Of a stretch of 39,405 nucleotides of DNA, positions 10,512 to 11,690 are shown in pieces. The notes below the pieces were generated by a model, which was not told where the DNA came from, ran no database searches, and saw nothing but the letters and a program-made list of their open reading frames with translations. Location: IMG/VR virus record IMGVR_UViG_2713896795_000007, positions 1 through 39,405 of that record. One strand, written 5' to 3'. The translations under genes were made by a program, and so were the position numbers. Each line of letters begins with the position of its first letter. Position 1 is the first letter of the stretch. This DNA comes from a virus (taxonomy: Duplodnaviria; Heunggongvirae; Uroviricota; Caudoviricetes).

Positions 10512-10865
10512 TCATTATTCTGGCAACACGAATTATACAGCACTGGCGTGTTTTTTTACGTGGGGGCAGGTTGTTTTAATACATCTTTGGTCCTCAGGCT
10601 ATGGTTTGAGGTCGGTTATAGCCTCAGTGCTGATTTTTTACAACAATGGAATGGTGCATTATCGGTGGAGATTTAGTATTTCCTGGCAGGGCTGATGATG
10701 CACTATCCCGGTGTTGTAAAAACACTACAGAGGTGTTCCTCAGTGCGAGGGTGGTTTAAAGAGTCGGTTTAGCGGGAAACCACAGTATCCTTGTGGGGCT
10801 GGATGCTTCGGGTGGCACCCGACACTTCTGAATAAAATTAAATCATGCGTTTTTATATGCCATTA

Positions 10866-10890
10866 ACCGCCGCTCCAGGCGGTTTTTTTT
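10866..10890. terminator. rho-independent terminator-like hairpin
   Basis: CCGCC-GCTCCA-GGCGG followed by TTTTTTTT in the ORF-poor region downstream of the tRNAs. Confidence 0.5.
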
Positions 10891-11510
10891 ATTCAAAGTT
10901 CGGGGTTACAAGTGCTCGCTTCCGCTACTTTGGTTTTTACAATTATAGTTTTTGGGAGAATCTTCATGGGGCGTGCTTCATCCTTTGCAATTCGCTGCTC
11001 CTGGTGTATGAGACAATGAAGTCAATGCGGTAACGAAGGTCGGATATCTGCTCAGTTTTATTCTGGTAATTTGGGGCCTTCGCTTTTTACAGATGCGGGC
11101 AGCACAAGGTTATTGGGGCGACGGCCATCATTGTTGCATTTGCAGGAGTTATTCTGAGTCCGACAAGAATATGCTGTTGAGTGCACGGCTGGCTGAAAGA
11201 AACTGCCACCTGAAGAATGGTGAACTTATTTAGTAGGGGATCCTGGATGAAATTGAACGGGATGATAACTCCGAAATTAGTCCACTGAGGAATGCCTTAT
11301 ACAAGAGATCATGGATAACCCTCGGGTATTTACAGGAAGCAAACGCCACTTACTTCACTACCCCGGAGAAGTGGGGACTGTCAATATGACAGATAACAAA
11401 ATCTGAAAATGAGTCTCTCCAGTTGAGAAATATACGATGAAGGAGCATTCTGTTCAGCGCAAAGTAATCCGTTTTGTGATGAATAATCTCGAGAGTCATT
11501 TTTCATTCCT

Positions 11511-11539
11511 GCCAGCCTCCCCAGAGCTGGCTTTTTTTT
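11511..11539. terminator. rho-independent terminator-like hairpin
   Basis: GCCAGC-CTCCCCAGA-GCTGGC followed by TTTTTTTT. Confidence 0.5.
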
Positions 11540-11602
11540 GAGGCCTGTTCTGACGGGCTTTGTTGTATTCGCTCCACGTCCCATACATATCAAATCTGAA
11601 TA

Positions 11603-11650
11603 ACACCACACAAAGGCATCTGCGGATGTCTTTGGTGTGGTGTTTTTTTT
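11603..11650. terminator. long imperfect hairpin plus T-run upstream of the lysis cassette (tR-prime-like)
   Basis: ACACCACACAAAGGCATC / GATGTCTTTGGTGTGGTGT inverted repeat followed by TTTTTTTT, about 40 nt before the holin start. Confidence 0.5.
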
Positions 11651-11690
11651 GGTCCGCTGGTGGCCTTTTTTAATTTACAGGAGAAAAAGT

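Follow-up and report, generated by a model that had tools for sequence, protein, structure and literature searches.

A tRNA-linked structured RNA, an orphan insert and a terminator stack between the tRNA and holin genes of a phiP27-like Escherichia coli prophage

The closest described counterparts of the element treated here are RNAs from the late regions of prophages. STnc100, a small RNA known from prophages of Salmonella and from Stx phages, is located between stx2B and the lysis genes, and has been detected as a discrete RNA by reverse transcription PCR (RT-PCR; PMC12370729). PasD, which is reported to be related to STnc100 in structure (2026 preprint), has been detected by Northern blot and by RNA interaction by ligation and sequencing (RIL-seq), and is found in Hfq RIL-seq chimeras (PMC8550237); its seed lies directly upstream of its terminator (PMC8550237 supplement). 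ROOL and GOLLD are phage and prophage RNAs that often occur near tRNA islands (bioRxiv 10.1101/2024.12.08.627333). Here we describe a structured RNA encoded directly behind two phage tRNA genes, within a 1.2 kb stretch (positions 10512-11690) of a 39,405-nt Caudoviricetes sequence, IMG/VR record IMGVR_UViG_2713896795_000007. The whole of this sequence, which we call the window, is of the phiP27-like Escherichia coli prophage type.

The stretch is probably a composite of three parts with different histories, namely an RNA gene (part A), an orphan insert (part B) and a terminator pair (part C). The complete 1.2 kb is found in only 6 of 5426 complete E. coli genomes. Its first ~360 nt recur at 70-84% identity in hundreds of genomes, on differing phage backbones and plasmids, and its last ~100 nt recur 5' of the lysis genes in almost every related locus.

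The structured RNA and its relatives

Part A runs from the end of the second tRNA gene to a terminator of its own, T1 (Table 1). Its + strand folds with a minimum free energy of -137.6 kcal/mol (z -5.7). Pattern scans of viral and metagenome contigs yielded 88 distinct real copies of the RNA, and 50 distinct copies were used for covariation. For these 50 copies the consensus predicted by RNAalifold has 60 pairs, and 19 of these show compensatory changes. The curated structure (RIBOSUM-refined) comprises 13 helices and 92 pairs; 95.5% of its 4534 cells are standard pairs, versus 40-53% in slid controls, in which the 3' partners are moved by 1-3 columns. Changes on both sides are seen at 24 pairs, compared with 2-10 in the slid controls, and the covariation score is 0.214 against 0.05-0.09. 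None of 500 shuffles reaches the observed values. G-U pairs are frequent (e.g. columns 55/154, 167/246, 179/234 and 185/228); these would become C-A mismatches on the opposite strand, and the RNA is therefore assigned to the + strand. An earlier, sequence-only reading of the stretch had suggested that it might encode structured RNAs and had named covariation across homologous prophages as a way to find out. Pairing within 10512-10890 is indeed kept through compensatory changes across homologous copies, and the suggestion stands for this part. It does not hold for the other ~620 nt, where folding of either strand shows no excess over shuffles (z +1.08 and +0.60).

The helices are arranged as a 5' domain, a long hairpin and a five-way junction, followed by a linker and the terminator. 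Within the 5' domain the closing stem is invariant, and the compensatory changes are located in the inner hairpins. This domain is truncated in one copy (L139) and absent in another (L121). In the long hairpin, helix 4 (25 pairs) is 97.4% paired, with seven pairs altered on both sides. The junction taken by itself has 96.6% of its cells paired, versus 46-52% in the slid controls. L121 is a divergent copy that also has a different terminator; because it retains both the long hairpin and the junction, we regard these two elements as the core of the RNA. No reading frame stays open across the 88 copies, and a conserved small open reading frame (ORF) within the RNA is rejected accordingly. No Rfam family reaches its gathering score for 10512-10890. 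The 5' domain and the junction were also considered as tRNA-like elements and rejected: although the arrangement of helices recalls a cloverleaf that has a variable arm, a T-loop is lacking, and no tRNA model matches at E<=10.

The RNA is closely tied to tRNA genes. For 118 of 141 copies the core motif lies 210-235 nt 3' of the end of a tRNA, so that the RNA begins right after the tRNA; among the others, several show a tRNA that is decayed or truncated. Most often the pair consists of Thr(UGU) and Gly(UCC), with Lys(UUU), Arg(UCU) or aberrant tRNAs in other cases. The core is present at 557 places in 425 of the 5426 E. coli genomes (~8%), on 143 PLSDB plasmids (all from Escherichia, 129 of them conjugative) and in gut and food metagenomes. 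The phage collection holds it in only two records. When a representative genome of each GTDB species was scanned for exact 20-mers, only four chance matches turned up, in high-GC bacteria, an absence that covers representative genomes rather than species. The backbones that carry the RNA are phiP27-like and lambda-like, the latter with the order Q, tRNAs, RNA, S/R/Rz, as in phage vB_EcoS-683R6. In the records examined the RNA is nearly always unannotated, or else overlapped by a "hypothetical protein" call. A keyword search of the literature gave no description of it, and its core sequences were not found in the paper texts searched.

On plasmids the RNA belongs to a fixed block (L006 2316-3737; L169 5817-7238) consisting of IS3 remnants, an aberrant tRNA (RefSeq 'tRNA-OTHER'; ARAGORN anticodon tttt), the RNA, its terminator and a gene for a DMT family transporter, whose start codon follows the end of T1 by 24 nt. 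Three metagenome contigs (L121, L139 and L140) carry tRNA-less or tRNA-truncated copies in lower-GC islands rich in insertion sequences. The neighbours of these copies encode an AraC/GyrI-like regulator, TrkH, or a TibC-type heptosyltransferase with an AIDA-type autotransporter. In a fragment of the LT-IIb phage SerU-LTIIb (KU052038; L002) the tRNA-RNA-holin module is present twice in tandem (1122-2424 and 3028-4127); in the first copy tRNA-Arg replaces tRNA-Thr and the 3' end of the RNA is truncated.

To compare the junction with described RNAs, a covariance model (R1) was built from 50 junctions of the window RNA's family only; it models the junction, not the full length. R1 finds a single copy in the window, at the five-way junction (119.4 bits). 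Searched against a 7-kb region of 933W, R1 places its best match precisely at the core of STnc100, with 15.8 bits (E ~5e-4) versus 5.6 bits for the runner-up. STnc100 lies there on the + strand (L171 3501-3706), 75 nt beyond stx2B and ahead of the lysis genes; the order is tRNAs, stx2AB, STnc100, yjhS, S/R. In the opposite direction, the Rfam STnc100 model (RF02076) aligns end to end on 10706-10896 of the window (18.1 bits, E 0.043 in a 205-nt search). Posterior probability in this alignment peaks at the hairpin next to the closing stem, CGGG-UGGCA-CCCG; the first hairpin of the junction matches too. Neither the window nor the copies in L170 and L004 reach the STnc100 gathering score of 47 bits; STnc100 of 933W scored 207.7 bits in the same run. 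These alignments suggest that the junction is quite likely homologous to the STnc100 core. The window RNA would not be filed as an Rfam STnc100 member, because it falls below the threshold and differs in size and architecture; it would instead represent an extended, tRNA-fused branch of an STnc100/PasD superfamily. We note that STnc100 in 933W is directly followed, on the opposite strand, by the anti-sRNA (anti-small RNA) AsxR (L171 3708-3760), and that an Rfam scan of the window detects no AsxR-like RNA after T1.

PasD gives a fainter signal. In the E2348/69 locus the best R1 match is placed exactly on nt 1-111 of PasD2, its 5' domain (L084 2656-2768), at a weak 7.6 bits (E 2.6 over 80 kb and 0.0097 over 301 nt). 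For blastn, the coordinates of PasA and PasD2 were taken from table S6 of PMC8550237 and the sequences from E2348/69. PasD2 matched only itself in the window and all loci, with no similarity to any copy of the family. Judged by sequence, the Pas sRNAs of enteropathogenic E. coli, whose genes adjoin holin genes, are absent here: PasA, like PasD2, was found neither in the window nor in any locus, and the stretch does not show the PasA/PasC pattern of similar sequence in antisense orientation 5' of the holin. The lone PasA match in the window is 18 nt long (E 0.1) and lies at terminator T2. The Rfam models of ROOL and GOLLD have no match at E<=10 in 10200-11750, nor any at gathering score in the whole window.

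The cargo slot and the terminators before the holin gene

The genes around the stretch follow the order Q (7169-7543), a CPBP protease gene, a TrmB-like gene, a DNA methyltransferase gene (9146-10192), tRNA-Thr, tRNA-Gly, the 1.2 kb stretch and the holin gene (ATG at 11691), after which come a second holin gene and an M15 endolysin gene. A prophage of E. coli C8 is 99.9% identical to the window and has no RefSeq feature in the interval from tRNA-Gly to the holin gene; in E. coli E24377A the region is 98.6% identical. phiP27 has the same methylase, tRNA and holin genes, with stx2eA/B placed exactly between its tRNAs and the holin gene. The idea that this position is a cargo slot, raised in the sequence-only reading with reference to related lambdoid phages, is borne out by the stx2eAB genes of phiP27 and by the differing contents of the slot in relatives: nothing, a ~200-nt extension, TerB with DUF3927, or a 126-aa ORF. 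The distance from T1 to T3b falls into four length classes, ~125 nt (empty), ~320 nt, ~750-760 nt and ~806 nt (TerB and DUF3927); the third class is that of the window, and also includes different content with the 126-aa ORF in L071. The ~320-nt allele (L170 5380-5480; L019, L022, L027 and L036) contains two GC hairpins, each followed by the repeat GGGACAAAGTCC (or GGGACAAAATCC), a small conserved element between the RNA terminator and the lysis genes.

In the window the slot is occupied by part B. The insert is flanked on one side by the degraded hairpin T1b (10912-10938), which is intact in the empty-slot relatives L018, L049, L058 and L168, and on the other by a degraded small hairpin just before T3a. 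It is present in only 6 of the 5426 E. coli genomes and in six viral contigs. Apart from near-identical copies and one at 90%, no homologues were found in phage records, plasmids, other E. coli or the fetched loci. In the 90% identical copy (L035) positions 11411-11505 are swapped for unrelated sequence, and the substitutions are not biased to third codon positions. The description of the 1.2 kb as ORF-poor proved accurate; the longest ORF touching it has 76 codons and none is credible. Ten ORFs of the insert searched against Pfam and PHROG gave no significant match (best E 0.09). Searches by tblastn (E<=1) with Stx2e A/B, LT-IIb A/B, L27 of phiP27, TerB, two DUF3927 proteins and the 126-aa ORF of L071 returned nothing credible, and in a blastn comparison of the phiP27 slot with the window the T3 region alone matches. 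The suggestion of a decayed toxin cargo finds no support in these results: they show no remnants of stx2e, LT-IIb, L27, TerB or DUF3927, and no deletion scars of stx, LT-II, TerB or DUF3927. Part B is apparently a non-coding, unstructured orphan insert, perhaps decayed, in the slot that holds stx2e in phiP27.

Two small features of the insert may be recorded. On its minus strand, a promoter-like site (11429-11456, 9/12 matches) and a weak terminator-like hairpin (11206-11223) could delimit an antisense transcript of ~215 nt; the promoter-like part is not conserved in L035. On the + strand, a 17-codon ORF (MGRASSFAIRCSWCMRQ) at 10967-11020 is preceded by GGGAGA 6 nt 5' of its ATG, and its L035 copy shows one R-to-C change.

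Folding places the three hairpin-plus-T-run elements that had been noted from the letters (T1, T2 and T3a) where they were expected, and adds a fourth, T3b, that had been overlooked; 10512-11690 thus contains at least four. All four consist of a GC-rich stem-loop followed by a U-tract, the hallmark of an intrinsic terminator. T2 has this classical anatomy and an energy no better than that of shuffles. In T3b the stem carries a mismatch in the window (-4.8 kcal/mol); most relatives have a perfect GGGCC/GGCCC stem followed by T6. A consensus scan of 8500-13500 finds 15 terminator-like sites, versus 5.4 +/- 2.5 in shuffles, and misses T2 and T3a through its loop and stem limits. T3a and T3b are kept (75-90% identity) across almost all of the related loci, phiP27 among them, and also where the lysis genes that follow are those of the unrelated essD/rrrD cassette.

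The last hairpin had been likened to a tR'-like terminator. This rested on analogy, and T3a lies ~4 kb from the end of Q (7543), separated from it by three genes, two tRNAs and several other terminators. A terminator on the + strand at 8651-8672 (GAACCCGCC...GGCGGGTTT, then a T-run), after the CPBP gene, resembles one directly 3' of Q in vB_EcoS-683R6 (L170 4548-4579). It is the better tR' candidate; if it is indeed tR', the CPBP gene may have been inserted between PR' and tR'.

Elsewhere in the window, Rfam identifies two further RNAs. A sok antitoxin RNA (116 bits) at 4555-4709 (+) adjoins a hokD-type toxin gene, forming a type I toxin-antitoxin module in the early region. A C4 antisense RNA of the P1/P7 type (58 bits) at 38715-38798 (-) lies upstream of a minus-strand ORF (38842-39405) at the far prophage end.

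Table 1. Coordinates of the tRNA genes, RNA elements, terminators, insert and longest ORFs in the window
Feature	Position	Strand	Description
tRNA-Thr(UGU)	10358-10433	+	ARAGORN; Rfam tRNA 69.8 bits
tRNA-Gly(UCC)	10437-10511	+	ARAGORN; Rfam tRNA 65.6 bits
Whole structured RNA	10512-10890	+	~380 nt, structured 10538-10884; from tRNA-Gly 3' end to U-tract of its own terminator
5' domain	10538-10632	+	closing stem CAGCACUG/CAGUGCUG around variable hairpins; helices 1-3; optional in the family
Long hairpin	10637-10720	+	~34 pairs with internal loops; helices 4-6; conserved core
Five-way junction	10730-10828	+	most conserved part of the RNA; closing stem 10730-10736/10822-10828
Junction hairpin 1	10738-10750	+	CCUC-AGUGC-GAGG; invariant (50 copies)
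Junction hairpin 2	10751-10783	+	GUGGUUU...AAACCAC; semi-conserved
Junction hairpin 3	10784-10807	+	variable, freely covarying
Junction hairpin 4	10809-10821	+	CGGG-UGGCA-CCCG; invariant hairpin; loop AGGCA in most copies
A/U-rich linker	10829-10864	+	unpaired in the consensus (predicted single-stranded); sequence and length vary across the family
T1, intrinsic terminator of the RNA	10865-10890	+	AACCGCC/GGCGGUU + U8; kept in all complete copies; stem 10865-10871/10878-10884; -12.4 kcal/mol, z -4.3
T1b, degenerate hairpin-plus-T-run remnant	10912-10938	+	GGCTCGCC..GGCGGGCC T5; stem broken in the window
Orphan insert in cargo slot	~10940-11570		no gene or structure detectable; T2 and a weaker hairpin (11539-11562) at 3' end
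T2	11511-11539	+	stem 11511-11516/11526-11531 + U8; -11.6 kcal/mol, z -1.2
T3a, long hairpin (19 bp)	11602-11650	+	hairpin 11602-11643 + U8; -28.6 kcal/mol, z -6.1
T3b, short GC hairpin + T6	11651-11671	+	20 nt before holin ATG; GGGCCGCTGGTGGCCC-T6 in most relatives
ORF, 76 aa	11381-11611	-	
ORF, 65 aa		+	start within tRNA-Gly
ORF, 62 aa		+	crosses a terminator

Possible roles of the RNA and competing explanations

We infer that the + strand transcript of the phage tRNA-Thr/tRNA-Gly pair continues into the RNA (~350-380 nt), which forms its 3' portion, since the RNA lies on the same strand directly behind the tRNAs and has a strong terminator at its end. Processing of the tRNA 3' end would release the 5' end of the RNA, and T1 would define its 3' end. 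The product most likely acts in trans; copies on plasmids and islands stand far from lysis cassettes, which favours a trans-acting product over a phage cis element. By analogy with PasD, the A/U-rich 3' linker may pair with targets, adjoining as it does a terminator and U-tail of the kind bound by Hfq. The invariant junction could serve as a folding, stability or protein-binding module.

The stack of T1, the decayed T1b, T2, T3a and T3b would stop ordinary RNA polymerase coming from the tRNA/RNA unit and the cargo before it enters the holin gene, and only Q-modified polymerase would read through. T3a and T3b in particular are likely to keep transcription of the unit and of the cargo out of the holin gene unless the polymerase is Q-modified. 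Empty-slot relatives have up to five terminators between the RNA and the holin, and in the 933W record the tRNAs have a separate promoter, pT, annotated as putative. The density of terminators suggests that a terminator-sensitive polymerase regularly arrives, that much unmodified transcription reaches the region, and that the RNA may be expressed outside Q-dependent late transcription, contrary to the earlier assumption that such RNAs would be read from the Q-antiterminated late transcript.

As an account of the stretch as a whole, a gene for a stable structured RNA, an orphan insert and a terminator stack form the best explanation, and one that we expect to hold. Several observations count against it. 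All copies of the RNA come from Escherichia, so the phylogeny is shallow and many of the compensatory changes are inherited rather than independent. The scores that link it to STnc100 and PasD are weak (18.1 bits where the gathering score is 47, and R1 scores of 15.8 and 7.6 bits), and the hairpins common to STnc100 and the window RNA are invariant and contribute no covariation. The shared module starts ~12 nt before the tRNA, and no promoter travels with it. A promoter candidate 5' of tRNA-Thr (10263-10290, 10/12 consensus matches) stands in a region where such matches occur at chance level, and the sequences compared there for promoter conservation were near-identical ones only; of the layout of a moron, the own terminator is clear at T1, and the promoter is this consensus match at chance density. 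Finally, there is a slight probability that the insert encodes a small peptide, for example from the 17-codon ORF with its good ribosome-binding site.

Among the other readings, the most probable is the following. Large structured RNAs fused to tRNAs might form a class specific to Escherichia, of which the window RNA would be the full-length form, with the junction as a specific binding or catalytic module and with STnc100 and PasD as reduced, junction-only derivatives. Partners of the junction could be, e.g., the ribosome, a defence system or an enzyme that processes or targets tRNAs. We consider this possible, with the chances clearly against it. If it were true, the STnc100/PasD superfamily would have a fold-based rather than a simple sRNA function.

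A functional kinship with ROOL and GOLLD, in which the fold itself does the work through self-assembly, through binding of the ribosome or of tRNA enzymes, or by countering or decoying tRNA-targeting defence, appears unlikely. The fusion to tRNAs in 118 of 141 copies, with a decayed tRNA kept even on plasmids, fits such a role, as do the 13 helices with invariant loops and the frequent location of ROOL and GOLLD near tRNA islands (bioRxiv 10.1101/2024.12.08.627333). The RNA nevertheless matches neither ROOL nor GOLLD in sequence or structure at E<=10, is ~350 nt long compared with roughly 600 and over 800 nt for those two, and has as its nearest detectable relatives sRNAs of ~170-200 nt.

Less likely still is a leader function in cis, by which the RNA, as a riboswitch-like sensor or as an element of processive antitermination, would control whether transcription passes T1 and enters the cargo and lysis genes. 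The RNA always lies 5' of cargo or lysis genes with a terminator at its end, the plasmid layout with T1 ending 24 nt before the DMT transporter start codon is riboswitch-like, and a junction with invariant loops resembles an aptamer. Against this, the divergent copies show no alternative, antiterminator-type pairing that changes along with the terminator: the junction of L121 has no changes to match its different terminator, and L139 has an altered GUCGG loop segment and an unchanged T1. The linker that joins the junction to the terminator is variable in both length and sequence, and up to four further terminators after T1 in the phage copies would cancel any regulated read-through. The relatives STnc100 (RT-PCR, PMC12370729) and PasD (Northern blot and RIL-seq, PMC8550237) are, moreover, discrete RNAs.

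Two further readings are the least likely. The view that the whole 1.2 kb is a cargo slot, decayed or empty, that yields nothing functional and whose hairpins are leftovers suits the middle ~620 nt, which are orphan, unstructured and without family matches, and the visibly degraded T1b and small hairpin. It is refuted for parts A and C: 10512-10890 is kept at 70-84% identity across phage backbones and plasmids with its pairs held by compensatory changes, T3a and T3b are conserved before two unrelated lysis cassettes, and deletion scars of stx, LT-II, TerB or DUF3927 are lacking. Very small proteins (<50 aa) overlooked by annotation pipelines are just as improbable as the product of the stretch, for although the 10967-11020 ORF has GGGAGA before its ATG and several + strand ORFs of 28-62 codons exist, no ORF is conserved among the RNA copies, the 34-aa insert ORF has no start and the 46-aa ORF no stop in L035 (where just 2 of the latter's 10 substitutions are at third positions), the 17-aa ORF has a non-synonymous change, and there are no Pfam or PHROG matches.

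Comparison with known systems

What is new in the preferred reading, a structured RNA gene followed by an orphan insert and terminators, is a widespread, unannotated RNA of ~350 nt that would extend the poorly understood STnc100/PasD group. In its number of helices this RNA equals a mid-sized riboswitch or ribozyme. The link points to a single RNA superfamily in the niche between tRNA or toxin genes and lysis genes of lambdoid and phiP27-like phages, the niche of Shiga toxin. For three RNAs about which little is understood, it offers a structural model together with targets for mutagenesis, namely the two invariant hairpins, CCUC-AGUGC-GAGG and CGGG-AGGCA-CCCG. The polymorphic slot and its terminator stack, for their part, provide a natural system for asking how prophages stop the transcription of a tRNA/RNA unit from leaking into holin genes.

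STnc100 and the window RNA share a niche, the late region after tRNAs or toxin genes and before the lysis genes, and an order of elements. In both, a closing stem is followed by a first hairpin CC(U/C)C-(A/U)GUGCG-(A/G)GGG and ends against a last hairpin C(C)GGG-AGGCA-CCCG(G) that abuts it; an A/U-rich linker (window 10829-10864) and an intrinsic terminator (T1) then complete the RNA. The first hairpin reads UCCUC-AGUGC-GAGGG in the window (10737-10751) and CCCCC-uGuGCG-GaGGG in the model. The last (10809-10821) directly precedes the 3' strand of the closing stem (10822-10828), and R1 aligns its equivalent in 933W. The two models match each other reciprocally, if weakly. The window RNA differs in its length (~350-380 nt versus ~206), in an extra long hairpin of ~85 nt and, usually, a 5' domain of ~95 nt, both supported by covariation, in its direct fusion to tRNAs and in its middle hairpins.

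PasD1 and PasD2 (EcOnc13) of prophages in enteropathogenic and enterohaemorrhagic E. coli are likewise late-region sRNAs, in which a structured 5' domain is followed by a single-stranded seed directly 5' of the terminator, and then by a U-tail. They are 172-173 nt long, follow a DUF3927 gene downstream of Q rather than tRNAs, and lack the CGGG-AGGCA-CCCG hairpin as such. ROOL and GOLLD resemble the window RNA as elaborately structured, seemingly protein-independent phage and prophage RNAs that adjoin tRNA genes, but are two- to three-fold larger, come from other phyla and form known multimeric cages. Regulatory RNAs derived from tRNA precursors include 3'ETS-leuZ of E. coli and, in the tRNA cluster of phage T4, the species 1 and 2 RNAs, which measure ~50-140 nt. 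The likeness here is that of a non-tRNA RNA that comes from a tRNA transcript and is released by tRNA processing, as we would expect for the window RNA; these RNAs differ from it in that small size and are unrelated in sequence.

The terminators, lastly, recall tR' and the morons of lambdoid phages. T1, T2, T3a and T3b each pair a GC stem with a U-tract inside a Q-dependent late operon, and the tRNA/RNA unit is laid out as a moron would be, with a promoter-like site, a gene and a terminator. Unlike tR', T3a and T3b lie ~4 kb from Q and directly before the holin gene, not beside PR' and qut. Their occurrence as a tandem pair before two different lysis cassettes is a trait of the phage group to which the window belongs.

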